Assembly: GCA_965204745.1 (NCBI GenBank)
Contig: OZ242010.1
Location: forward strand, 4,512,001 to 4,576,000
Direction of reading: 5' to 3'
DNA from: Candidatus Latescibacterota bacterium
GTDB lineage: Bacteria; Latescibacterota; UBA2968
Length of the DNA stretch: 64,000 bases
Below the pieces are notes generated by a model that saw only the letters and a program-made list of their open reading frames with translations, did no database searches and was not told where the DNA came from. The first letter of the stretch is position 1; every line of letters begins with the position of its first letter. The position numbers were made by a program, and so were the translations under genes. Of this stretch, positions 37,968 to 50,411 are shown one piece after another.

Positions 37968-38007
37968 AAAATAGCCCTACCGGAACGCATCCGGCAGGGC
38001 TGTTTTT
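37968..38007. terminator. Bidirectional intrinsic terminator between convergent genes
   Basis: aaaatagccctaccgga...tccggcagggctgtttt stem with A and T tails. Confidence 0.75.
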
Positions 38008-38268
38008 TTATTTTCCGTAATGATACCGACAGGCAATAATGGTCAAAGCGTCTTGCGATACAGCATAAACCAAGCGGTGTTCTGCGTTAATACGCCTCGA
38101 CCAATAGCCCGACAATTCACCTTTTAAGGGTTCTAACTTGCCTATCCCTCGAAATGGGTCTCGCTGTGTTGCTTTGATCAGATCATTCACCTGTTTGTGC
38201 AATTTTTGATCGCGTTGCTGAAACCAGAGATAGTCTCGCCATGCGGTTTCCGTGAATACCAATTTCAC
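38008..38268 (-). CDS. yoeB: Txe/YoeB family toxin
   Basis: AW.DYLW.Q, GIGK.EPLK..LSGYWSRRI..EHRLVY and CRYHY motifs. Confidence 0.95.
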   Translation of the reverse strand: MKLVFTETAWRDYLWFQQRDQKLHKQVNDLIKATQRDPFRGIGKLEPLKGELSGYWSRRINAEHRLVYAVSQDALTIIACRYHYGK

Positions 38269-38519
38269 GCTTCTAATAACTCCCGTTCTGAAAATTTTCC
38301 TTTCTCTGCCTCGGCGATAGATCGGCGCAAGTGGGCCGCATTGGCGGGGTTTGAAAGCAGGTACAGGGTTTCCTGCCAGGAATTAAATTCTTCCAGCGAG
38401 AGGATGACCGCTTTTTGACTTCCCTCGCCGCAGATAATCGTGGGGTCGGCATCTGTTGCGACGCGCTCGATGATGCGATCCAAATCGCGCTTGGCTTCGT
38501 TTATCGTAATGGCATTCAT
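38265..38519 (-). CDS. yefM: Phd/YefM family antitoxin
   Basis: AVILSLEEFNSWQETLYLLSNPANAAHL; overlaps the toxin start. Confidence 0.93.
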   Translation of the reverse strand: MNAITINEAKRDLDRIIERVATDADPTIICGEGSQKAVILSLEEFNSWQETLYLLSNPANAAHLRRSIAEAEKGKFSERELLEA

Positions 38520-38554
38520 AGATAACCGCCTTGAGTTTGGGCTTGGGACAGTTC

Positions 38555-38929
38555 TCATTTCGGGATAACAGCATCCAAGTATTTTGAATACCATGAAAGT
38601 ATGGCGACTAAAACGCTGATAATCGTCGTCGCAATCAACCCGTAAAACCATCGCCTATCGGTTTTGAGTTCCGTCTCCACGCGGTTAATGTCGCTTTTCA
38701 AGTTGCTTTCCACGCGGTTGATATTGCTTTCCACGCGGTCAAAGCCCGCGTCTATGCGGTTTAACAACTGCTCAAAACGGGTGATGGATTGACTTTCCAC
38801 GCGGTCGATATCCTTCTCATTCTGTTCGGTTTTGGTCTCAACCGCAACCACGCTTTTTTGCGTGTCATCTAAACGGCGGTCTTGCTCGGATACGTCCTTT
38901 TTAAGCCTCGCCACCTTCTCGGAATCCAT
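38555..38929 (-). CDS. Hypothetical coiled-coil protein with C-terminal TM helix
   Basis: AAAGGAG RBS before MDSEKV; repeated (D/N)RVE(S/T) heptads; hydrophobic tail. Confidence 0.7.
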   Translation of the reverse strand: MDSEKVARLKKDVSEQDRRLDDTQKSVVAVETKTEQNEKDIDRVESQSITRFEQLLNRIDAGFDRVESNINRVESNLKSDINRVETELKTDRRWFYGLIATTIISVLVAILSWYSKYLDAVIPK

Positions 38930-39327
38930 CGTAACAACTCCTTTCTCATCGCGTTTGAACATGCGTTGCCCGCTTGATGGGCTGTAAAAAAGTACACAAA
39001 ACGGGGATGCGTGGCAAGTGGGATTTGCCACGCATTTCGCATATCTCGCTGCATTGCAAACGCGCCTCGATGAAATCGACACTGCGATTTTTCATACCTT
39101 CTTCAAAATCTCTCCTCTAGTGGGATAGGCGAATCGGCGCATCGATCAACGGAACGGGGTATAGGCCAGTTCATCAACGAATCAACCGTAGGGCCAGACC
39201 CTGTCCTCGTATCTAGCACAGAGACCGATAGCGAAACGCCGAGGGCTGATTTCAGGGATCGATCAGGCCATTGGTTTTCCTTTCGCGTCTTTCGCAGTCG
39301 CCCCACTGCCCGCTGACCGACATAAAA

Positions 39328-39486
39328 AAATTTCCGCAGGCGCGAAAAATCTTCTGCTCAACCACTACTGGCCGGGCGATATCCGCGAGTTGCAAAACAC
39401 GCTCAGGCGTGCGATGGTGTGGGCAGATGGCGAAATCCCGACCCGAGAAGCCATTGAAGAAGCCATTTTGCCCGGATTTGGAACCG
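39328..39486 (+). pseudogene. Duplicated fragment of the sigma54 activator gene 3' half
   Basis: Near-identical to 47517-47676 with a few substitutions. Confidence 0.9.
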
Positions 39487-39525
39487 AACAAAAAATGTTA
39501 AAAAAAATCAACCATCAGATCGAAT

Positions 39526-39541
39526 TGGCACGCAACATGCT
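39526..39541 (+). promoter_or_regulatory. Sigma54 (-24/-12) promoter
   Basis: TGGCACGCAACATGCT has exact GG-N10-GC spacing; a bEBP gene lies in the same island. Confidence 0.65.
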
Positions 39542-39691
39542 TAAGTAACGGGCAGGACAGCGGCGGGGATGTTCGGAAGGGCGCGAGGCCAATGTCGAAT
39601 TTTCTGACTTGGCGTGAATCGAACAGGACAGGTAGCCACCTGGGAAAAGTGCAAAGGACTGGAAGCCATCAGTGGAAAGGAGGTGAGTGCC

Positions 39692-39787
39692 GTGGTTAAA
39701 ATTCTGCCGTTTTTGTTCCAGTTGGCTATCGTCATCATAGACAGTTGGCCGGTCATCATAGACAACTGGCCGTCCAAAAAGAGGTAA
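39692..39787 (+). CDS. 31-aa hydrophobic peptide, type I toxin-like (MVKILPFLFQLAIVIIDSWPVIIDNWPSKKR)
   Basis: AAAGGAGGTGA RBS, GTG start, TAA stop, hydrophobic N-terminus, basic tail, downstream hairpins. Confidence 0.65.
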   Translation: MVKILPFLFQLAIVIIDSWPVIIDNWPSKKR

Positions 39788-39907
39788 CATTTTGGGCGGA
39801 GACAGCATCAGGGGGCGAGAGTTCTGCCTCGTCCCCTGAAAAATGGCTCGATAACCTACCAAGCCGCCAGTGGTCAGCTATCCGCAGTCAGCGGTCCCAA
39901 AAATTTC

Positions 39908-39937
39908 TTGACAACCCTGTACATTATTTGGTAGTGT
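39908..39937 (+). promoter_or_regulatory. Sigma70-like promoter of ATPase module 1
   Basis: TTGACA-N18-TAGTGT; conserved in the duplicate at 42769-42798. Confidence 0.55.
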
Positions 39938-40028
39938 GTTTTCATCTTGACCCGTTCCAACCGAGTCAGTATCAAACGCGAGCGTTCATCCCGATCCGAA
40001 CTTTTTAATTTTTTGAGAGGAATCGATC

Positions 40029-41714
40029 ATGCCCATTACCTCGATCACCATTGAAAACTTCAAGGGCATTGGCGAGAAAGCCGTGACCATTCCCATTCGC
40101 CCCATCACCTTGCTGTTCGGCAAAAACAGCTCGGGCAAATCCACTGTGTTGCAGGCCCTGCGCTATTTTTCCGCAGTTATGATGAACCAATGGCCCAATT
40201 TAGGCCGCATAAAAATGAGTGGCGGTTTGAATACAGACTTGAACGATTTTCATTCCCTGGTGCATCGCCATGAGTTGGACCGGAAAATTCGCATTCGTGT
40301 CCATACACAAATTTATCCTTTGCCTTTGAAGCAATGGTATGAAGTGGTAACGGGATGGGTAAAAGGAGACGGAGGATACCATGACTGCGAGTCAATCTCA
40401 CTGGGACATATCTTAGAAACAGGCGAAGAAATATGTTTGAGTTTTCGAAAAAAAAAAGAAAAATTCGCCGATGCAGTGATTGGCTCGAATGGCGAAAAAC
40501 TGATTTTTTGTAAAAAACTAAAAATTGAGGATGAGGATATCGTAGGACAAATATATGTGAATACGACTGATCTTTCTAATCAGGCTAAGAAGCTCATAGA
40601 TTTTCAGCATGATCTATTCCATAAACTATTCCATGAATCTCTTAACCCGAAAGAATTAAAAATAAAAAAATTAACTGATAAAGTTTTTGGCCAAGGACTC
40701 GCTGGACTTGGATCAAATATGCGCCATTTAGGTCCATTCCGAGAAGTGCCTCCTCGCGAGTATGAGATACCCCAAACACCCGACGAATCGCAATGGCAAA
40801 CAGGATTGGGCGCCTGGGATGCCCTCGCACGAGACCCCAAATTGGTCGAAAAAACAAACCACTATCTGAAAGAGGTTTTGAAACTTGGATATACCATCAA
40901 GCAACCGGAACCCGGTCAACACTTTCAACTTCACGATGAAAACAATGAGATAGACGTCGGCCTATCAGATGTCGGTGTTGGCATTGCCCAGGTCATTCCC
41001 GTTGTGGTGGGGGCATTAGATGATAGCCCGAACACTTTTGCGGTTGAACAGCCAGAACTCCATGTTCATCCCGCTGTGCAAGTGGCTTTGGGCGATGTGT
41101 TCATTGACAGCGTAAAACATCGCGAGCAGGCTCGCGAGCAGGCTATTGCAGAGTTCTCGCAGAAGATAGAAAATGCTCTTGAGATCAAAGAACGCATTGA
41201 AAATCTTGAAGAGTCCAAAAGACCTAAGTTTTTTGAGTTGAAAAAAGAAAAACTCAAGATCGATGAATACAATGAGACTTTAGAGTTCATTGAGTTCATG
41301 GAGTCGATACAGGAAAATGGAGAAGGACAAGCTGAATGCGGCGTTCAAGCCGGTTTTGAGTTTATTGAGTTGATACAAGAAAACCCTAAAATCATTGAAA
41401 ACCCTAAGTTTTTAGAGTTCTTTAATGCGATACAAAAAAGCAATTACACCATACTTATTGAAACTCATTCTGAACACTTGTTGTTGCGATTGTTGCGACG
41501 TGTGCGCGAGACAATGCGGCGGCGACGCAGGGCAGAGACAGCGGAATCAGAACAGCCGTGCTACGAATTGACACCTGATGATCTATCAGTGATCTATGTC
41601 CGGCCAACACCGACAGGGATTAAGTTCACCCCTATCAATGTAACGGAAGATGGCGACTTTGATGCACCTTGGCCCGAAGGCTTTTTTGAAGAACGCGATT
41701 CGGAGTGGTATTGA
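40029..41714 (+). CDS. ABC/AAA_21-type ATPase with DUF3696-like tail (copy 1)
   Basis: IENFKGI, GKNSSGKS Walker A, DVGVG signature, VEQPELHVHP, ETHSEH and WPEGFF. Confidence 0.88.
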   Translation: MPITSITIENFKGIGEKAVTIPIRPITLLFGKNSSGKSTVLQALRYFSAVMMNQWPNLGRIKMSGGLNTDLNDFHSLVHRHELDRKIRIRVHTQIYPLPLKQWYEVVTGWVKGDGGYHDCESISLGHILETGEEICLSFRKKKEKFADAVIGSNGEKLIFCKKLKIEDEDIVGQIYVNTTDLSNQAKKLIDFQHDLFHKLFHESLNPKELKIKKLTDKVFGQGLAGLGSNMRHLGPFREVPPREYEIPQTPDESQWQTGLGAWDALARDPKLVEKTNHYLKEVLKLGYTIKQPEPGQHFQLHDENNEIDVGLSDVGVGIAQVIPVVVGALDDSPNTFAVEQPELHVHPAVQVALGDVFIDSVKHREQAREQAIAEFSQKIENALEIKERIENLEESKRPKFFELKKEKLKIDEYNETLEFIEFMESIQENGEGQAECGVQAGFEFIELIQENPKIIENPKFLEFFNAIQKSNYTILIETHSEHLLLRLLRRVRETMRRRRRAETAESEQPCYELTPDDLSVIYVRPTPTGIKFTPINVTEDGDFDAPWPEGFFEERDSEWY

Positions 41715-41716
41715 TT

Positions 41717-42688
41717 ATGCTGAAAATTTTTGCTATTGATCCCAAAATCTGTGGAAATCTGGATTGGTTTAAATACTGTACAGAGCACTGCCGGCCATCA
41801 CAAGGGCGCGTGATGGTCGATTTGCCGTACGGTCAGTGGTACCGAAATGCGGAACAGATCATTGACCAACTCGCTCAAGACCGTCAACTCCCTCCCATAA
41901 AAGAACGCGGCTTAAAAGCACGTCTGAAGATGGTGAAAGACCAACTGGTAGATAGACCAAGATCTGGTTGGACGAATTGGTATGATGATGATTTCTCACG
42001 GTTTTCTTGGCTTATCGAAACGAGGAAAGAGCACCAGCGAGAGCCGTTTTCCCTTGTCGTCAGTCCTGACTGCGATGGTGTTGATGATGTTAGGCAAGAG
42101 TATCATCCCGATGAACTCGATAGAACTGTACGCGATTGGAATACGCCCAGTGGCGTTTCAATTACGCGCAGTCCTGGAGAATTTGTAACTGCCATTCTGC
42201 CAATGCTTCGCCTTGCTACGACTATTCACTTTTTAGATCGGTATTTTAGCGTAGATACTAACAGTTCTTATACCCAAAATTACAAACGTATTATCGAGGA
42301 GTTAGCCTCGTATTGTGATTCATTTCCATCCCTGACAATCCATTGTTGCCCGGACGCTATGCCTGACCAAACTTACTTTGAAAATGAACTGCACGAGCAC
42401 TACGCCCCCTCAATACCAAAAGGAAAGTCTGTGGCGGTTTTCTTGTGGCAGACAAATGGAAACCCAAAAAGAGGTACTCATCCTTTTCACAATCGCTTTG
42501 TGTTATCTAATCATTGCGGCGTCAGTGTGGGATATGGCACAGATAGTGCAAAGCAAAAGACTCAGGCACCAGACCTCCTCCAGATTATCGACCATGAAAT
42601 ATATCTGAACTTGTGGAATCAAATTCGGGACGAGACATTTCCCATGCTCGATATTGAACGCGAGTTTGAGATTACGGGGATCGCGTGA
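41717..42688 (+). CDS. Hypothetical protein with PLD-like/MIT_C-like C-terminal domain (partner 1)
   Basis: FLDRYF...FHNRFVLS...GVSVGYGTD; starts 2 nt after the ATPase stop. Confidence 0.7.
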   Translation: MLKIFAIDPKICGNLDWFKYCTEHCRPSQGRVMVDLPYGQWYRNAEQIIDQLAQDRQLPPIKERGLKARLKMVKDQLVDRPRSGWTNWYDDDFSRFSWLIETRKEHQREPFSLVVSPDCDGVDDVRQEYHPDELDRTVRDWNTPSGVSITRSPGEFVTAILPMLRLATTIHFLDRYFSVDTNSSYTQNYKRIIEELASYCDSFPSLTIHCCPDAMPDQTYFENELHEHYAPSIPKGKSVAVFLWQTNGNPKRGTHPFHNRFVLSNHCGVSVGYGTDSAKQKTQAPDLLQIIDHEIYLNLWNQIRDETFPMLDIEREFEITGIA

Positions 42689-42889
42689 CTAGCGGTGTAT
42701 CCTGCGTACCATAAAATTGAAACTTACAGCAGATCGCAATAGACAACTGGTCGTGTCCCAAAAATTTCTTGACAACCCTGTACATTATTTTTTAGTGTGT
42801 TTTCATCTTGACCCGTTCCAACCGAGTCAGTATCAAACGCAAGCGTTCATCCCGATCCGAACTTTTTAATTTTTTGAGAGGAATCGATC

Positions 42890-44536
42890 ATGCCCATTAC
42901 CTCAATCACCATTGAAAACTTCAAGGGCATTGGCGAGAAAGCCGTGACCATTCCCATTCGCCCCATCACCTTGCTGTTCGGCAAAAACAGCGCGGGCAAA
43001 TCCACTGTGTTGCAGGCCCTGCGCTATTTTTCCGCAGTTATGAACCAATGGCCCAATTTAGGCCGCATAGAAATGAGTGGCGGTTTGAATACAGACTTTT
43101 TTCATTCCCTGGTGCATCGCCATGAGTTGGACCGGAAAATTCGCATTCGTGTCCATACACAAATTTATCCTTTGCCTTTGAAGCAATGGTATGAAGTGGT
43201 AACGGGATGGGTAAAAGGAGACGGAGGATACCATGACTGCGAGTCAATCTCACTGGGACATATCTTAGAAACAGGCGAAGAAATATGTTTGAGTTTTCGG
43301 AAAAAAAAAGAAAAATTCGCCGATGCAGTGATTGGCTCGAAGGGCGAAAAACTGATTTTTTGGAAAAAACTAAAAATTGGGGATGAGGATATCGTAGGAC
43401 AAATATATGTGAATACGACTGATCTTTCTAATCAGGCTAAGAAGCTCATAGATTTTCAGCATGATCTATTCCATAAACTATTCCATGAATCTCTTAACCC
43501 GAAAGAATTAAAAATAAAAAAATTAACTGATAAAGTTTTTGGCCAAGGACTCGCTGGACTTGGATCAAATATGCGCCATTTAGGTCCATTCCGAGAAGTG
43601 CCTCCTCGCGAGTATGAGATACCCCAAACACCCGATGAATCGCACTGGCAAAAAGGATTGGGCGCCTGGGATACCCTCGCACGAGACCCCAAATTGGTCG
43701 AAAAAACAAACCACTATCTGAAAGAGGTTTTGCAACTTGGATATACCATCAAACAACCAGAACCCGGTCAACACTTTCAACTTCACGATGAAAACAATGA
43801 GATAGACGTCGGCCTATCAGATGTCGGTGTTGGCATTGCCCAGGTCATTCCCGTTGTGGTGGGGGCATTAGATGATAGCCCGAACACTTTTGCGGTTGAA
43901 CAGCCAGAACTCCATGTTCATCCCGCTGTGCAAGTGGCTTTGGGTGACTTGTTCATTGACAGCGTAAAGCATCGCGAGCAGGCTATTGCAGAGTTCTTGC
44001 AGAAGATAGAAATTGATCTTGAGATCAAAGAACGCATTGAAAATCTTGAAGAGTCCAAAAGACCTAAGTTTTTTGAGTTGGAAAAAGAAAAACTCAAGAT
44101 CGATGAATTCAATAAATTCATTGAGACTTTAGAGTTCATTGAATTCATAGAGTCGATACAAGAAAACGGAGAAGGACAAACTGAATGCGGCGTTCAAGCC
44201 GGTTTTGAGTTTATTGAGTTGATACAAGAAAACCCTAAAATCATTGAAAACCCTAAGTTTTTAGAGTTCTTTAATGCGATAAAAAAAAGCAATCGCACCA
44301 TGCTCATTGAAACGCATTCTGAACACTTGTTGTTGCGATTGTTGCGACGTGTGCGCGAGACAACAGAGGGAGAGCAGACAGAGCACCCATTGACGCCCGA
44401 TGATTTGTCAGTGATCTATGTTCGATCAACGCCAGAAGGAGTTGAGTTCATCCCAATCAGCGTGACGGAAGATGGCGATTTTGAGGTCCTTTGGCCCGAA
44501 GGCTTCTTCGACGAGCGCGTGGAGGAGCTTTTCTAA
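42890..44536 (+). CDS. ABC/AAA_21-type ATPase with DUF3696-like tail (copy 2)
   Basis: Same motifs as copy 1; near-identical DNA up to RRVRET. Confidence 0.88.
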   Translation: MPITSITIENFKGIGEKAVTIPIRPITLLFGKNSAGKSTVLQALRYFSAVMNQWPNLGRIEMSGGLNTDFFHSLVHRHELDRKIRIRVHTQIYPLPLKQWYEVVTGWVKGDGGYHDCESISLGHILETGEEICLSFRKKKEKFADAVIGSKGEKLIFWKKLKIGDEDIVGQIYVNTTDLSNQAKKLIDFQHDLFHKLFHESLNPKELKIKKLTDKVFGQGLAGLGSNMRHLGPFREVPPREYEIPQTPDESHWQKGLGAWDTLARDPKLVEKTNHYLKEVLQLGYTIKQPEPGQHFQLHDENNEIDVGLSDVGVGIAQVIPVVVGALDDSPNTFAVEQPELHVHPAVQVALGDLFIDSVKHREQAIAEFLQKIEIDLEIKERIENLEESKRPKFFELEKEKLKIDEFNKFIETLEFIEFIESIQENGEGQTECGVQAGFEFIELIQENPKIIENPKFLEFFNAIKKSNRTMLIETHSEHLLLRLLRRVRETTEGEQTEHPLTPDDLSVIYVRSTPEGVEFIPISVTEDGDFEVLWPEGFFDERVEELF

Positions 44537-44538
44537 CG

Positions 44539-45489
44539 ATGATACATGAATATGCCTTAGAACCCGAACTCGTCGCAAGTTGGCACAACCGTTCAGACTC
44601 CAGATTCTTCATCGAACACTTCGGTTTTAATCAGACTGGCGACGCAACAGGCCGCGTGGTGGCTCAATATCCCAAGAAGTGGGAAAAACGAGTTTGGGAT
44701 GCGTTCTCTGCAAACTCTGGACAATCTACAAGATCCTTTGAGACCCGAAGACGTATTGAGACATTGTTGCGCGAGTTAAAGAAAACTCTTATCCGCCGCC
44801 CTAATATCAGTTGGGACGATCAACGCACTTGGCTCGAAAATGCCGAACAGGAGAATACGCGCCATCCATTTCATGCAATCTTGGCCTGCGACAATCCTCG
44901 CAACAAACCCAATGTCGTGCGTGGAGACGACGTACTAGATGATACTCCTCCTCTCTGGCGCGTGCGTCCTGCAATCCCAGTAGAGAGGCAGGCGATGAAG
45001 ATGGCAAATCACCTTGAACCAATGTTGCGCTGTGCAACGAAAATTTTTTTTGTCGATCCATATTTTCGTGCGTTAGAACCGAGATTCCAAAATCCTTTAC
45101 GAGAATTTCTACGCATCATTTGTGATGGCAGTCGCCCTGTTACGCTTGAATACCACACGGCCTGTTACGACAATGCACCGGCTTGGGATCATTTTCAACA
45201 GGAATGCCAAGATGCGCTTCCGGATATCATCCCCCGAGGTTTCGAACTCACCGTCCGCCGTTGGGAGGAACGGCCTCGCGGCGAGCGGCTTCACAACCGC
45301 TATATTCTCACTGACGTCGGCGGCGTACAGTTCCCACATGGACTCGACGAAGGCACTGGTACAGACGATATTTCCCGGCTAAGCAGAGAAATTTATCGGA
45401 AACGGTGTAATGATTACGGTCATTCCGGTTTCAATCCTGCATTTGATCTGGAGGGAGACATCGTCATCACAGGTAGATCTAGACCTTGA
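44539..45489 (+). CDS. Hypothetical protein with PLD-like/MIT_C-like C-terminal domain (partner 2)
   Basis: FVDPYF...LHNRYILTD.GGVQFPHGLD; GGAGGAG RBS; ATG 2 nt after the ATPase stop. Confidence 0.72.
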   Translation: MIHEYALEPELVASWHNRSDSRFFIEHFGFNQTGDATGRVVAQYPKKWEKRVWDAFSANSGQSTRSFETRRRIETLLRELKKTLIRRPNISWDDQRTWLENAEQENTRHPFHAILACDNPRNKPNVVRGDDVLDDTPPLWRVRPAIPVERQAMKMANHLEPMLRCATKIFFVDPYFRALEPRFQNPLREFLRIICDGSRPVTLEYHTACYDNAPAWDHFQQECQDALPDIIPRGFELTVRRWEERPRGERLHNRYILTDVGGVQFPHGLDEGTGTDDISRLSREIYRKRCNDYGHSGFNPAFDLEGDIVITGRSRP

Positions 45490-45534
45490 TCGTCACATAC
45501 GTATGATCAACAGCGTATCATAGGAGGAATTGCA

Positions 45535-45846
45535 ATGGGCATCTTTCGCAGAGGGCGGCCTAGCCGACAGGCCCCACCCAATAAACCTGGTCTCTATCGG
45601 TTCAGAAACCGAAAGACTGGCGAGATCGATTATATCGGCGAGACCGCGAATTTGGCGCGCAGGATCTTTGAGCATTTTCGGTCATCCAAACCCGTATCCC
45701 CAAAAACCCACCACGCCGAATGGCAGAGGGCGGATGGTCGAAGCACATCTAAAACCCGCCGAGCGCATGAGCGCGCTAAAATCAACCAGCACAAGCCGAG
45801 ACAGAACAAGCGCGATGGGGGTGGTGGGCGAAGGGCAAGGCGGTGA
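45535..45846 (+). CDS. Small GIY-YIG nuclease
   Basis: PGLYRF...YIGET.NL.RR..EH...E...I...KP..N; AGGAGG RBS. Confidence 0.85.
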   Translation: MGIFRRGRPSRQAPPNKPGLYRFRNRKTGEIDYIGETANLARRIFEHFRSSKPVSPKTHHAEWQRADGRSTSKTRRAHERAKINQHKPRQNKRDGGGGRRARR

Positions 45847-45954
45847 TCGGTGCGTGTCATCAACCAAAAATAAGACTTGTCACGAACAGCGCTCGGGCAA
45901 GTCTTATTTTGTTATACTTCTATTTCTCCTCATTTTTCAACTACGCGGAGCGGG

Positions 45955-46182
45955 GTACAACTGCGATAGCAGTTCATCGTCGGGCTTGCCTCTCACCTCT
46001 TGCCTCTCCCGTCTTGCCTTGTACAACTGCGATAGCGGTTCATCGTCGGGCTTGCCTCTCACCTCTTGCCTCTCCCGTCTTGCCTCGTACAACTGCGATA
46101 GCGGTTCATCGTCGGGCTTGCCTCTCACCTCTTGCCTCTCCCGTCTTGCCTCGTACAACTGCGATAGCGGTTCATCGTCGGG
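45955..46182. repeat. 66-bp tandem repeat, about 3.5 copies
   Basis: Units start at 45955, 46021, 46087 and 46153 and are nearly identical. Confidence 0.93.
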
Positions 46183-46338
46183 ACAAGCCCCCGTGCCTGT
46201 CCGAAGCAGTGACGGGTCGAGGTGTGCCAGTATAGGCCAACAAAATTCGTATCACCATTCACTTCAAAAGGCAAAAGCAACCACGGCTGAACGCGGATGA
46301 AACCCGATTTTGCTAACCGCTAACCACTGAAAGCACCC

Positions 46339-47872
46339 ATGAAACGAATTTTGATATGCTGGATCGGAAATACGGACTTGGACGCCGCAAAAGGAGATAA
46401 AGATGTTGGGGCCGGGCCCATTGCACAGGCATTGGAAGCGCGTGCGTTTGACGAGGTCTGTTTGATTACCGATTATCCAAAGGCCCGCGTTATGCCTTAT
46501 CTCGACTGGTTGCAAAACCGAACCGAGACCCCGCAGCGTTTGTTTTGCGAGAAACTCTCAGGCCCGACTCAATTCGGCGAGATTTACGAAGCGGCTGTGC
46601 GCGTTTGCACGGCGGCTTTGGATCGACAATCCGTTCCAATAGAACTCGCCTTTCACCTCAGCCCCGGCACCCCGGCAATGGCCGCTGTGTGGATCATTTT
46701 GGCGAAAACGCGCTTTCCCGCAGAGTTGATCGAGTCCTCAAGGGCGCATGGCGTTCAAACGGCCGCTGTGCCCTTTGATATTTCCGCAGAATTTCTGCCC
46801 GACCTCCTGCGTGAGTTAGACGCGCAACTGCGGTCGTCAAGCGAAGAACGCCCCACTAAATCCGCGAGTTTTGAAGACGTGCAGTACAGAAGTGCGGTCA
46901 TGGCGCGGTTGGTCGAAAGGGCGCGGCGCGTTGCTATGCGAAATATCCCGGTGTTGCTCGAAGGCGAATCCGGCACGGGCAAAGAACTGTTTGCCCGCGC
47001 GATTCACAAACACAGCCCGCGCAAAGACGCGCCATTTGTCCCTGTGAACTGCGGCGCGATTCCAGCCAACTTGGTGGAATCCGAACTGTTTGGACACGAG
47101 AAAGGCGCGTTCACCGGTGCCCAATCCCGGCGCAAAGGCCACTTTGAAGCAGCAAATAATGGGACGCTCTTTTTGGATGAAATTGGCGAGTTGCCCAAAG
47201 ATATGCAGGTGAGATTGTTGCGCGTGTTATATGCAGGTGAGATTGTTGCGCGTGTTAGAAGAAGGCGAGGTCGTCCGGGTTGGGTCATCCAAACCCATCT
47301 CGGTGGATGTACGCATCATTGCGGCGACGAATCGCAATCTCATTGCGGAAGTCGGCGCGGGGCGATTTCGAGAAGACCTGTTCTATCGGCTCGTGGTGGC
47401 CTATCTCGAATTGCCCCCTTTGCGCGACCGCACCGGGGATTTGGGGTTGTTGATCGACCACGCACTCGCGCTGATCAACCGGGAAAGCGAAAGCCAGCCC
47501 GGGTACAAACACAAACAAATTTCCGCAGGCGCGAAAAATCTTCTGCTCAACCACCACTGGCCGGGCAATATCCGCGAGTTGCAAAACACGCTCAGGCGTG
47601 CGATGGTGTGGGCAGATGGCGAAATCCTGACCCGAGAAGCCATTGAAGAAGCCCTTTTGCCCGAGTTTGGAAACCGCGGAGAAGGCATCCTGAACCGCCC
47701 CTTGGACGCGGGATTTAGCCTGCGCGATCTGATTGACGAAGTCGCAAAACACTATTTGTACCGCGCATTGAAGGAATCAAACACCAAAAAGGAAGCCGCC
47801 GAACTCGTGGGCTTGCCCAGCCCACAGACGTTCACCAACTGGGCAAAAAAGCACGGCGTGAAAGTAACATAA
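46339..47872 (+). pseudogene. RtcR-like (CARF-type N-terminus) sigma54-dependent activator, frameshifted by a 28-bp tandem duplication
   Basis: WIGNTD...[10 protein letters not shown]-domain, [29 protein letters not shown] and HTH; duplication at 47201-47228/47229-47256. Confidence 0.88.
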
Positions 47873-47994
47873 AAAGACTAGGTTCTGTTGACATTTAGGA
47901 GCAAAGCAACTGGCTTGAGCGGCTTATCGAGAAAATCAAGCCCTATCGCAGAATATGCTCTCGATTTGAGAAATTCGGACAGTCGCTCCTTGTC

Positions 47995-48258
47995 GGGACC
48001 TACCCCCCTGGCCCCCGTTACTCGCTTCGCTTCGTTGTAGGCTACGCCTGTGCCTGTGAGGAAGGGGGGAACTGTGAGCGGTTTTGCGAGGGGATTGATG
48101 AGGGATTTTTAATCGCTTTAGGTCCTCGCGCACCGCCATAAGAGCCACCAGAGCGAGAAGCCATCAAAGGAACTTTTCTCCCCTTTCCTCGTAGGAAAGG
48201 GGCCGGGGGATAGGTCCCCTCGCGCAACGCCATCAGAGCAACCTAAGCCATCAAAGGG
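47995..48258. repeat. Dispersed repeat family B copy
   Basis: Matches the 59055-59405 and 33510-33742 modules. Confidence 0.85.
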
Positions 48259-48467
48259 CCAAACGCCTTAAATGAGCAAGAAGCAACACAGTTGCTACAC
48301 ACCTAAAAAAACGACCATCAGATCGAATTGGCACGCGAGCATGTAGGTGCGGTTCATCAAAAAATTAGGACTTGTCGCGAACAAAGGGTTGCGAGTGTTC
48401 GGGCAAGTCTTATTTTGTTGCTATTCCGCGCTTGTTTTGCCGATTGCTAACTGCTTGGATGGCCGCG

Positions 48468-50411
48468 ATGGCTGAAACACTGACCACAACATCTAGCGCA
48501 ACGCGCGAGGGGGTGACGCGCCGGGCCGTGGTGGTCGGGCTGGCGGTGGTGGTGTGGATCGCGTTTTGGAACACGCACGCCGAGTACCTCGCCCATACAT
48601 CGCGCATGAACATCAGCCATTTTCCGATGGTGCTCTTGTGTACGTATGTGATAGTCGTGTTGCTGAATCACGCATTGCGATGGATAAATCCCGGCTGCGC
48701 GCTTCGTCAAACCGAGTTGCTGGTGGTCTTGGGCATGGGCCTGTTGGCCGCGGCCATTCCCGCTTACGGTTTGACGAGCTTTTTTTTGGGCATGATTTCC
48801 GTGCCGCATTACTTGGCGACGCCTGAAAACCAATGGTCCGAGTTCGTCCACCCGCATTTGCCCGACTGGTTGGTGCCGAGCAATGAGGGCCGCGCCATGC
48901 AATGGCTCTACGAGGGCCTGCCCGCGGGGCAATCCATTCCTTGGAACGTGTGGGTCGTGCCCCTGTTTTGGTGGTTGAGCGTCATCGCGGCCATCGCGCT
49001 GGCCTCTATCGCGCTGGCGAGCATGTTGCGAAAACAATGGGCCGAACACGAGCGCGTGGCCTATCCGGTGCTCGGCCCGCCGGTCGCGCTAGCTGCGGAC
49101 GCGCCCAAAGGCGAGGGCATCTTGCACAATCGGCTGTTCTGGATCGGGTGCGGCCTGATTTTCTTTGTCAAGGCGTGGAATATCCTGTCCTATTTCAACC
49201 CCGGCATCCCCATTATTTGGCTCGGGCAACAGTGGTTCTACTTTGCGCGGTTTTATCCGCCCCAGCACACGGGCGTGAATTTTTTCACCATTGGCTTTGC
49301 GTATTTTGCCAATGTGGATGTGCTGTTTTCCATCTTGATCTTTCACCTGTTGTACCTCAATGAGATCGCGTTTTTTCGGCGCATTGGCTTTACCCTGTCC
49401 GCCAAAACGGGCCCAGGCGACGCGGTGGCGGGTCTGCAAAGCGCGGGGGCGTTTATCGCGCTGGTCTTCTGGACGTTTTGGACCGCGCGCCTGCACTTGA
49501 AAGAGGTGTTCCGCAAGGCACTGCGGGGCGATGAGGGGGTGGATGATTCGGGCGAGTTGATGTCGCATCGCGCGGCGGTTTTGTCCCTTGGCATCAGCGC
49601 GGTCTTCCTGATGTTGTGGTTGCGGACCATGGGCTTGGAATGGAAATTCGTGGGCCTGTTGACCGCGGGCTTGTTCATCGCGTACGTGGGCCTCGCCCGG
49701 GTGATTGCCGAAACCGGCGTGGTGTATATGAGCATGCCGATCAACGAGGCGGGCTTTGCGGGTTTGTTTTTTCACCCGGCGGATTATTCGGCAAATGCGC
49801 GCACGTCGATCACCCTGTTTTCCGCGCTGCGCTGCCAGAGCAAAGCGATGTTTATGGTGCCGCTGGTTCACATCGCCAAGTTGGGCGAGATGATCGCGCA
49901 GGAAAAGGGGCGGTTGTTGCCCATCGCGATCCTCACCTTGGTCGTGGGCATCGGCGGCACAGTGGTGTTGACGCTGTTTTTGAGCTATACGCACGGCGCG
50001 TACAATTTTAACGATTTTCCCTTTACGCGCTATCCACCCCGCGTGTATGACGCCTTGGTCAAAGCGATCAAGGAAGTGCCCGAATACAAACCCGAACGCT
50101 ACGTGTTCCTCGGCGCGGGCGTGTTCCTGTTCAGCGCGATCAGCTTTTTGCGCTATCGCTTTACGTGGTGGCCCCTGCATCAGATCGGGATGATCGTGCC
50201 GGTGGGGCACGCGATGCACTCGACCATGTCCATTTTCATCGCTTGGAGCGCGAAAGCCATTATCCTCCGCATCGGCGGCGCATCCCTGTACCAGCGCAGC
50301 CAACCCTTTTTCGTGGGCATGCTGGTAGGCTATGGCCTCGCCGTGTTCGTCTCGTATTTGGTGGATCAAATCTGGTTCCCTGGCCGCGGCCACCACATGC
50401 ATTCGTGGTAG
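48468..50411 (+). CDS. DUF6785/DUF6784-like polytopic membrane protein (putative transporter)
   Basis: Many TM segments; RKQW.E.ER..YP, R..AETG and WWPLH.IG motifs; start uncertain. Confidence 0.75.
   Translation: MAETLTTTSSATREGVTRRAVVVGLAVVVWIAFWNTHAEYLAHTSRMNISHFPMVLLCTYVIVVLLNHALRWINPGCALRQTELLVVLGMGLLAAAIPAYGLTSFFLGMISVPHYLATPENQWSEFVHPHLPDWLVPSNEGRAMQWLYEGLPAGQSIPWNVWVVPLFWWLSVIAAIALASIALASMLRKQWAEHERVAYPVLGPPVALAADAPKGEGILHNRLFWIGCGLIFFVKAWNILSYFNPGIPIIWLGQQWFYFARFYPPQHTGVNFFTIGFAYFANVDVLFSILIFHLLYLNEIAFFRRIGFTLSAKTGPGDAVAGLQSAGAFIALVFWTFWTARLHLKEVFRKALRGDEGVDDSGELMSHRAAVLSLGISAVFLMLWLRTMGLEWKFVGLLTAGLFIAYVGLARVIAETGVVYMSMPINEAGFAGLFFHPADYSANARTSITLFSALRCQSKAMFMVPLVHIAKLGEMIAQEKGRLLPIAILTLVVGIGGTVVLTLFLSYTHGAYNFNDFPFTRYPPRVYDALVKAIKEVPEYKPERYVFLGAGVFLFSAISFLRYRFTWWPLHQIGMIVPVGHAMHSTMSIFIAWSAKAIILRIGGASLYQRSQPFFVGMLVGYGLAVFVSYLVDQIWFPGRGHHMHSW

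Follow-up and report, generated by a model that had tools for sequence, protein, structure and literature searches.

How two neighboring gene pairs come to share an almost identical ATPase up to one sharp point, and beyond that point carry different tails and different partner genes, is the question raised by a locus in a 64,000-nucleotide (nt) stretch of a Candidatus Latescibacterota bacterium genome (contig OZ242010.1, positions 4,512,001 to 4,576,000 of the forward strand), referred to below as the window. An initial annotation had presented the four genes, here called ATPase A, partner A, ATPase B, and partner B (Table 1), as a candidate undescribed anti-phage system in which tail and partner were swapped after a duplication. 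Our analysis led us to a different reading, which we consider fairly probable: the pairs are ATPase-effector modules resembling part of the Menshen defense system (NsnA-NsnB-NsnC) but lacking NsnA, and they belong to an old A+B array that was homogenized by gene conversion.

A repeat finder and a global nucleotide alignment both returned a sharply bounded tract, in which positions 39894-41514 and 42755-44363 are ~98% identical. Identity jumps from ~35% to 98% at ~39894/42755 and drops at ~41514/44363. Within the tract, the two leader copies differ by 3 mismatches in 135 nt, and the coding cores differ by 34 mismatches in 1465 aligned nt (13 synonymous and 21 nonsynonymous) plus four in-frame indels of 3, 6, 12, and 9 nt. 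Past the RRVRET codons, the ATPase tails are only 72-73% identical at the nucleotide level, and the identity between the partner genes is 25-63% per 60-column window, mostly 38-47%. At the protein level, the ATPases share 504/564 identities (core, 96%; tail, 65%) and the partners 85/334 (25%, E 3e-21). Both partner ATGs lie 2 nt past the stop codon of the preceding ATPase. Thus, near-identity up to RRVRET and the tight spacing of both pairs, as described in the initial annotation, were confirmed. The locus falls in a low-GC patch at ~38-46 kb (40-53% GC versus 56-63% in the flanks).

Judged from their sequences, the window ATPases belong with the NsnB-like ABC ATPases that end in a DUF3696 tail. 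Pfam AAA_15 matched both proteins (A, 3.1e-16; B, 3.5e-16) and AAA_21 matched ATPase A (2.2e-14), while DUF3696 was found above its 22-bit cut-off in ATPase B (23.1 bits, E 8.5e-5) and below it in the tail of ATPase A (20.5 bits, E 5.9e-4). The top PADLOC model for both was PDC-M55A (A, 2.5e-42; B, 2.2e-44), followed by NsnB (A, 8.4e-36; B, 3.5e-36) and then by HEC-03B, AriA, and GajA. A 40-sequence profile of the ATPase family aligned over its whole length with one of the canonical NsnB proteins encoded by this genome, WPEGFF tail included (hhalign 99.8%, E 1.3e-29), and the Walker A motif, R235, a GxG signature, EQPE, and H476 are invariant in the family. We also noticed a helical insertion of ~100 residues, rich in E, K, F, and I, between the Walker B region and the H-loop of the window ATPases (~361-470). 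It is missing from most family members outside Latescibacterota, and three of the four indels between the copies lie within or beside it.

Both partners are modeled as an N-terminal PIN-like domain followed by a C-terminal single-motif phospholipase D (PLD)/MIT_C-like domain, and they are probable nucleases. The AlphaFold2 models scored a predicted local distance difference test (pLDDT) of 92.2 for partner B and 90.4 for partner A, and Foldseek retrieved phospholipase D and MITD1 with the partner B model. The fold search with both partners was an all-against-representatives structural comparison (VIA-align). With it, the C-domain of partner B (~142-315) matched SauUSI (Z 10.6), MITD1 (9.8), Nuc (8.9), NucT (8.9), Zucchini (8.4), and BfiI (7.6), and that of partner A (~142-320) matched TrmB (9.9), NucT (8.6), and MITD1 (8.2); the two MITD1 matches (2ymb) had a root mean square deviation of 3.2-3.6 Å with ~130 residues aligned. 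The N-domains (~1-140) matched many PIN domains (Z 5-6.3 for partner A and 5.0-7.3 for partner B); among the acidic PIN positions, they conserve E105 and an acidic residue at position 8 but not the others. In the C-domain, the residues of interest are D174 and H258-N-R260 in partner A and D173 and H252-N-R254 in partner B, of which D173, H252, and R254 (partner B numbering) are invariant across the A and B types. Each partner carries a single motif, which ends in D in B (HxR(x)4D) and in N in A (HxR(x)4N), where canonical PLD has HxK(x)4D. The fold to which the initial annotation had likened the partners, and the shared motifs it had listed, were therefore recovered in both.

At the sequence level, the partner profiles align with each other over their full length (hhalign 99.9%, E 4.4e-35), and no Pfam or NCBIfam family was found in either partner, MIT_C (PF16565) included (Pfam at E up to 1). 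Searches of PDB sequences with both partner profiles, and with a profile of the activator N-domain described below, gave chance-level matches only. The ESM Atlas neighbors of the partners include MIT_C-carrying clusters, the BrxL model was matched by 14/39 B-family members, and 11/39 of them weakly matched the NsnC model (best, 0.0021). These families are unannotated and large, amounting to 75 and 502 clusters at 90% identity, and a joint partner profile collected 2,860 clusters at 50% identity (E up to 0.001), 1,005 of which reach 1e-30. Partner homologues were also found on four plasmids, annotated as "hypothetical protein" beside "AAA family ATPase." On a Deinococcus plasmid (L113, 4022-6897), a homologous ATPase-partner pair has as neighbors a second AAA ATPase and a DUF2357 protein, which together resemble an McrBC-type pair.

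The history of the tandem was read from related arrays. Partner A homologues occur in 8/21 genomes of the genus, and five regions were compared. The gene order is activator-C-A-B in G083 (locus L030), activator-C-A in G081 and in G086, activator-C-A(broken)-B in G085 (locus L037), and C ... A in G082, where C denotes a third type of partner that shares homology with A and B (98.4%, E 5.4e-15) and has a true H-D-R motif. Comparing A with B in L029, L030, and L037 gives 61-62% identity for the cores and 57-67% for the tails, versus 96% for the window cores. Hence, a swap of tail and partner after duplication, as first proposed, probably has the direction wrong, for A and B stand side by side elsewhere with well-diverged cores. 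The window tail A shares 88% identity with the G082 A tail versus 65% with window tail B, whose own identity to the L022 B tail reaches 96%; partner A shows 81-83% identity to G082 and partner B 77% to L022.

Maximum likelihood trees (quick search) were built with groups set beforehand by partner hidden Markov model type; they contain relatives belonging to one genus and a flagged long branch (L020). In the partner tree, every type formed one clade with a support of 100. The tail tree needed 3 label changes, the minimum, with a support of 99 for C and 88 for A, B not being resolved. The core tree, in contrast, needed 10, with well-supported branches forcing at least 4 (A), 6 (B), and 4 (C), and approximately unbiased (AU) tests rejected type clades for the cores (p 8.6e-12, 3.7e-34, and 2.3e-6). 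Some C modules have near-identical partners and tails but cores only 48% identical (e.g., G083 versus G086). Since partners and tails follow the module type and cores do not, the near-identity in the window is most likely a recent gene conversion that ended at the core/tail border, and repeated recombination at the conserved HSEHLLLRLLRRVRET stretch is the simplest reading of the trees. These data bear out the earlier idea of a reusable core with exchangeable tail-effector cassettes. As a separate observation, the C-module ATPase cores of L111 (G086) and L019 are 98% identical, but an A-type module follows in one and a B-type module in the other, which is a cassette polymorphism between close relatives.

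Gene neighborhoods were surveyed at 80 loci with B-family partners from species-representative genomes, mostly of Latescibacterota, Binatia, and deltaproteobacterial groups, a set biased to B-type partners and to two peptide patterns. The ATPase lies directly upstream of the partner in 78/80 loci, one of the remaining two being a 1.2-kb contig, and six loci carry two or three modules. DUF262, the domain of NsnA, was present in 0/110 upstream open reading frames (ORFs) of at least 200 amino acids (aa), and GmrSD_N was present in 2/120 downstream ORFs (one match, in L048, being a full GmrSD, and the second lying in L072), in neither case at the NsnA position. In the genome of the window, DUF262 had 7 matches, all outside the window and none upstream of the pairs. 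Two of the seven stand at the head of complete canonical Menshen operons of this genome, at G000:C1:4471671-4474994 (L098) and G000:C1:255191-258247 (L099), with PADLOC scores of 1e-111 and 1e-141 for NsnA, 3e-101 and 4.2e-105 for NsnB, and 3e-118 and 1e-24 for NsnC; their NsnC proteins are unrelated in sequence to the window partners.

Two other kinds of neighbor were frequent at the 80 loci. A sigma-54 activator lies upstream in 22, and HsdM and/or HsdS of type I restriction-modification (R-M) operons were found at 25. The remaining neighbors include OLD-like, AbiTii, TIR, BrxA/B, GmrSD, KAP, Schlafen, and Cap2-like genes. A sigma-54 motif (at most 1 mismatch) precedes the ATPase in 13/22 activator loci versus 1/25 R-M loci. 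The activator N-domains form one alignable family, in which Pfam RtcR was matched by 8/21 (best, 9.2e-8) and Csm6 CARF by 6/21; the N-domain of the window activator matched neither, and HTH_8 was seen in the activators of relatives only. Directly downstream of the partner, L044 (7719-11108) and L082 (2558-6013) carry ORFs of 1130 and 1152 aa, respectively, in which no Pfam family was found at E up to 1e-8.

From these elements, a working model can be drawn. The ABC ATPase would oligomerize, and its DUF3696 tail would hold the effector through the N-terminal PIN-like domain of the latter. Upon a trigger, a change in the nucleotide state of the ATPase would free or activate the effector, whose single HxR(x)4(D/N) PLD/MIT_C-like domain, probably paired with a second copy, would cut nucleic acid and stop phage growth. 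Single-motif PLD nucleases such as Nuc act as dimers, and AriB of PARIS is reported to be released and then to dimerize; release plus dimerization is therefore an attractive route here. In relatives, an RtcR-like (CARF) sigma-54 activator with a sigma-54 promoter, or a type I R-M operon, would exert control instead of NsnA. The tandem itself would descend from an old array of an A-type and a B-type module, between which a recent conversion of ~1.6 kb would have copied the leader and the ATPase core; because it stopped at the HSEHLLLRLLRRVRET stretch, each module would have kept its own tail and effector. A complex prediction with two copies of ATPase B 466-548 and partner B, run with alignments and without controls, scored 0.00 and weighs neither way.

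Several alternatives have to be weighed against this model. That the near-identical tandem is an assembly or polishing error is extremely improbable. Assemblers can collapse or duplicate 1.6-kb repeats, and the genome record, one contig of 5.48 Mb, is apparently metagenome-derived; nevertheless, the stretch is present in 15 public runs from 7 studies, and Logan contigs of 4 runs, drawn from 4 studies, break off ~30 nt after entering either repeat end (39923 and 42784), which is how unitigs behave at true repeats, and they carry both unique junctions (core to tail A in X1 record 4 and X13 record 28; core to tail B in X1 record 7). In X1 and X10, contigs internal to the repeat were ~2x as deep as the unique parts, depth not being equal to copy number. 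Contig-free parts in some runs (e.g., 42968-43783 in X10) were given no evidential weight, and the 4 runs are not all independent, because the best-holding one may be the source sample. Moreover, 34 substitutions and four in-frame indels separate the copies with open frames kept in both, and the A-B order is found again in other genomes. The tandem is real, and the public-run contigs answer the concern about misassembly raised with the initial annotation. A more serious competitor, which we regard as rather unlikely, is that an L022-like B module was recently duplicated and one copy gained a foreign A-type tail and partner at HSEH...RRVRET. L022, the closest relative by partner B (77%), consists of activator, intergenic region, ATPase, and partner B only, and the window sequence upstream of ATPase A is collinear with the L022 upstream region; in addition, the window cores are somewhat nearer to the B-type (57-58%) than to the A-type (51%) cores of L029, L030, and L037. 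However, A precedes B in L029, G083, and G085; partners A and B have diverged to a similar degree from their G082 and L022 relatives, as under vertical descent; and the G082_A and L022_B cores cluster with the window cores whatever their type, so cores have been reshuffled repeatedly in this lineage.

The points that count against an old array of NsnA-less, Menshen-like pairs homogenized by conversion are the following. As L022 carries a B module only, the A cassette may have been gained, instead of an old array having undergone conversion. The window partners appear to have the inPIN + PB-PLD1 architecture of NsnC, as judged from its published description. Partner B matched the PADLOC NsnC model (PDLC03880) only weakly (E 0.017), partner A and all of the 33 A-family members did not match it, and the B family showed no similarity to the two canonical NsnC proteins of the same genome by hhalign; a search for PDLC03880 in 168 genomes of the phylum found none, but its controls were equally empty. 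PIN matches with Z 5-7 fall in a range that may reflect a common arrangement only. In the C-domain, R replaces the K of PLD, as in MIT_C-like domains, and N stands where the H-D-R motif of MIT_C has D. In MITD1, the MIT_C domain binds membranes; because of this and of the motif changes, catalysis by the PLD/MIT_C-like domain is not assured. A partner homologue was present in none of 50,697 phage records, an absence that in itself does not speak to a role in defense. Regulation at the window is unclear, its upstream activator copy being a remnant and its downstream one a pseudogene. Finally, the sigma-54-linked loci are flanked by housekeeping genes and not by defense islands. This last point bears on whether the modules act against phages at all or form a stress or RNA/DNA-damage operon switched by the RtcR-like activator (e.g., for nucleic-acid turnover or repair). 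The activator at 22/80 loci, often with a sigma-54 promoter, speaks for the latter, as do PhyH, SHMT, and BNR/sortilin genes in conserved positions of the Binatia and Latescibacterota flanks and the known RtcR regulon, which serves RNA repair. We nonetheless judge it unlikely, given the R-M operons and the defense genes beside other loci, the homology of the module to Menshen NsnB/NsnC, the multicopy arrays with their low-GC island composition and fast cassette turnover, and the RtcR-like regulators that already head defense superoperons (PMC11090510). It is likewise quite improbable that the MIT_C-like domain is not a nuclease and has a membrane, phospholipid, or small phosphodiester target in another killing or signaling route. 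Its closest small-domain matches do include the MIT_C domain of MITD1, PLD, and phosphatidylserine synthase, and the motif is HxR instead of HxK; yet PLD-family nucleases from SauUSI to BfiI match equally well, the N-terminal PIN-like domain is of a nucleic-acid type, no transmembrane or lipid-targeting features were noticed in the partner sequences, and PB-PLD1 is treated as a nuclease class in the text of PMC12065111.

The regions around the pairs hold remnants of the regulatory arrangement seen in relatives (Table 1). The L022 order is activator, intergenic region, ATPase, partner B, and GIY-YIG ORF, relative to which the window is rearranged. The upstream activator remnant has 93% DNA identity to 47497-47672 and a blastn match to the L022 activator. 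A perfect 28-nt tandem duplication (47201-47257) disrupts the downstream activator gene, causing a frameshift within the AAA+ domain. With one copy a remnant and the other broken, sigma-54 control is probably lost here, and any expression would have to start from the conserved leader. The 15-mer of the sigma-54-type motif is identical in L022, with a close variant in L019 and L030, and in relatives it sits just downstream of the activator gene; since such motifs occur at chance level across the whole window (86 found, 84 expected), the case for it lies in this conservation and position. The leader boxes TTGACC-17-TATCAA are conserved in the alignment of relatives, while a scan for consensus sigma-70 promoters and terminators was not above shuffles (12 versus 8.6; 14 versus 8.5) and did not list these boxes.

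Table 1. Features of the ATPase-partner locus and its flanks (window coordinates)
Feature	Position	Strand	Description
Sigma-54 activator remnant	39309-39545	+	79 codons; internal piece, AAA+ lid region; Pfam AAA_lid_14 E 9.2e-12
Sigma-54-type promoter-like motif	39526-39540	+	GG-N10-GC; 1 mismatch to TGGCAC-N5-TTGC
Small conserved ORF	39693-39788	+	31 codons; hydrophobic; ends ...IDNWPSKKR; after GGAGGTGA ribosome-binding site
Conserved GC-rich hairpin	39809-39838	+	Between small ORF and ATPase leader; changes on both arms in four genomes, by eye
Leader copy A	39894-40028	+	135 nt; -35/-10-like TTGACC 39947-39952 and TATCAA 39970-39975; ribosome-binding site
ATPase A	40029-41714	+	561 aa
ATPase A core	40029-41514	+	NsnB-like ABC ATPase; Walker A GKNSSGKST; in near-identical tract
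ATPase A tail	41515-41714	+	DUF3696-like, A type; ends ...RDSEWY
Partner A	41717-42688	+	323 aa
Leader copy B	42755-42889	+	By alignment to copy A
ATPase B	42890-44536	+	548 aa; core to ~44363, then B-type DUF3696 tail ending ...RVEELF
Partner B	44539-45489	+	316 aa
GIY-YIG small ORF	45535-45846	+	103 aa; Pfam GIY-YIG 6.6e-6
RtcR-like sigma-54 activator gene	46339-47872	+	Sigma54_activat 5.8e-51 and 1.8e-19 on two pieces

Between the remnant and the leader, the small ORF contains a 21-nt in-frame tandem duplication (39731-39772; Tandem Repeats Finder). In an alignment with frames followed by eye, it is intact (25-31 residues) in the window, L022, and L019 and has an in-frame stop in L030; it could be a leader peptide/attenuator or a small membrane peptide. 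Rfam gave no match in 38000-48500. By blastn, the DNA of the GIY-YIG ORF has its counterpart behind the B-type partner in L022 and within arrays in L019 and L030. Perfect or near-perfect tandem duplications recur locally: besides those of 28 and 21 nt, one of 12 nt (41120-41144) lies in ATPase A, in frame like that of the small ORF. At 45955-46182, between the GIY-YIG ORF and the activator gene, a 66-nt tandem repeat has 3.5 copies at 98% identity; its unit contains an inner 14-nt repeat and a short palindrome and has no Rfam match. The left margin of the low-GC patch carries, on the minus strand at 38008-38519, a YoeB toxin (Pfam 1.9e-37) paired with a Phd/YefM antitoxin (4.7e-21), adjoined by an XhlA-like small membrane protein (38555-39082).

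The locus bears on how Menshen works, a mechanism that is still unsolved; the published analysis treats NsnA as the obligatory sensor. Given the size of the NsnA-less family, the ATPase-effector pair is a self-standing unit that can be wired to a CARF/sigma-54 activator or to a type I R-M operon. The sharp core/tail border supplies genetic evidence from nature for the DUF3696-inPIN interface that had been predicted, and tail and effector behave as one heritable cassette, freshly once in the window and repeatedly in the trees. Because the window ATPases differ almost only in the tail, they make a natural pair for comparing tail roles, and the RtcR-like link is a second case of sigma-54/CARF control of defense genes, beside the CoCoNuTs. 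More tentatively, NsnB/NsnC-type modules might form an immune layer independent of Menshen, without NsnA, in which the RtcR-like activator would switch the arrays, perhaps in answer to RNA-damage signals, and the tail, welded to its effector, would perhaps be the specificity adaptor of a plug-and-play ATPase scaffold whose interchangeable cores would be overwritten time and again by recombination. If this were true, the window would have caught a conversion event just after it happened.

With regard to known systems, the window pairs share a working principle with PARIS (AriA/AriB), Septu (PtuA/PtuB), and Gabija (GajA), in which control over a bound nuclease lies with an ABC ATPase of the OLD/AAA_15 kind. 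The N-terminal parts of the window ATPases match the PADLOC models of AriA, GajA, and PtuA, and the parallel is drawn in PMC12065111 as well, so that the comparison made in the initial annotation, an ABC ATPase with a probable nuclease, is supported. The effector folds of these systems are, however, Toprim and HNH, without a DUF3696-inPIN pairing, and the resemblance is one of principle, not of membership. To the MIT_C domains of MITD1 and the BrxL C-termini, the partners are linked by the fold match and the single H-x-R motif; they differ in the fusion to a PIN-like domain, in the pairing with an ATPase, and in the N that stands for D in the A/B motif. As in the CoCoNuTs of types II and III-A, where an RtcR-like CARF-AAA+-helix-turn-helix (HTH) activator heads defense superoperons (PMC11090510), a CARF-AAA+-HTH sigma-54 activator stands 5′ of a same-direction run of defense genes. 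The cargo, in contrast, is one to three NsnB/NsnC-like modules and not McrBC-type CoCoNuTs, and in the window the activator is broken and lies downstream of the modules. PDC-M55, which PADLOC-DB v2 lists as a two-gene "phage defence candidate" and for which no paper seen gave a description, may be related to the window pairs: its A model is the best match of both window ATPases, and its B model (PDLC04708) has 315 positions, the size of the partners, although it matched neither partner nor any of 72 family members (E up to 1) and nothing in the genome (E up to 0.01).

Menshen is the closest known system. The window pairs share with it an AAA_15-type ABC ATPase with a DUF3696 tail; the peculiarities of NsnB noted in PMC12065111, namely R for the Q of the Q-loop, a GxG signature, and an altered Walker B; an effector gene directly after the ATPase gene; an effector of ~300 aa with a PIN-like N-domain and an MIT_C-like single-motif PLD C-domain; the acidic residue after beta-2 and the H-x-R motif of PB-PLD1; and a frequent association with type I R-M. 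They differ in that no NsnA (ParB-DUF262) gene lies beside the pairs, in the window or at the 80 related loci, and in the NsnB score (E-36 versus E-101 to E-105 for the two canonical NsnB of the genome). Further differences are ATPases ~170 aa longer, H-N-R instead of H-D-R in partners A and B, tandem arrays of up to three modules, and the link to an RtcR-like sigma-54 activator. An NsnC variant with inPIN and PB-PLD1 is described in PMC12065111, where PB-PLD1 is read as a nuclease class linked to MIT_C and BrxL C-termini and the NsnC N-domain is predicted to be sandwiched by two NsnB DUF3696 tails. NsnA-less pairs could not enter the set analyzed there, because that set was seeded on NsnA, and its text mentions no NsnA-free, two-gene, or standalone forms, recombination, gene conversion, or tandem modules. 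In the literature on Menshen/NsnB, DUF3696, and RtcR-linked defense, the supplements of PMC12065111 apart, we found no description of a large two-gene family without NsnA, of tandem arrays behind an RtcR-like activator, or of a core/tail recombination border. Taken together, the system cannot be called undescribed as a whole, in view of the PADLOC NsnB match and of the NsnC architecture published in 2025 (PMC12065111). It is a two-gene, NsnA-less relative of Menshen NsnB-NsnC whose components and tail-inPIN idea were already in print, and what remains new is the NsnA-less form, its arrays, the link to an RtcR-like activator, and the recombination border between core and tail.

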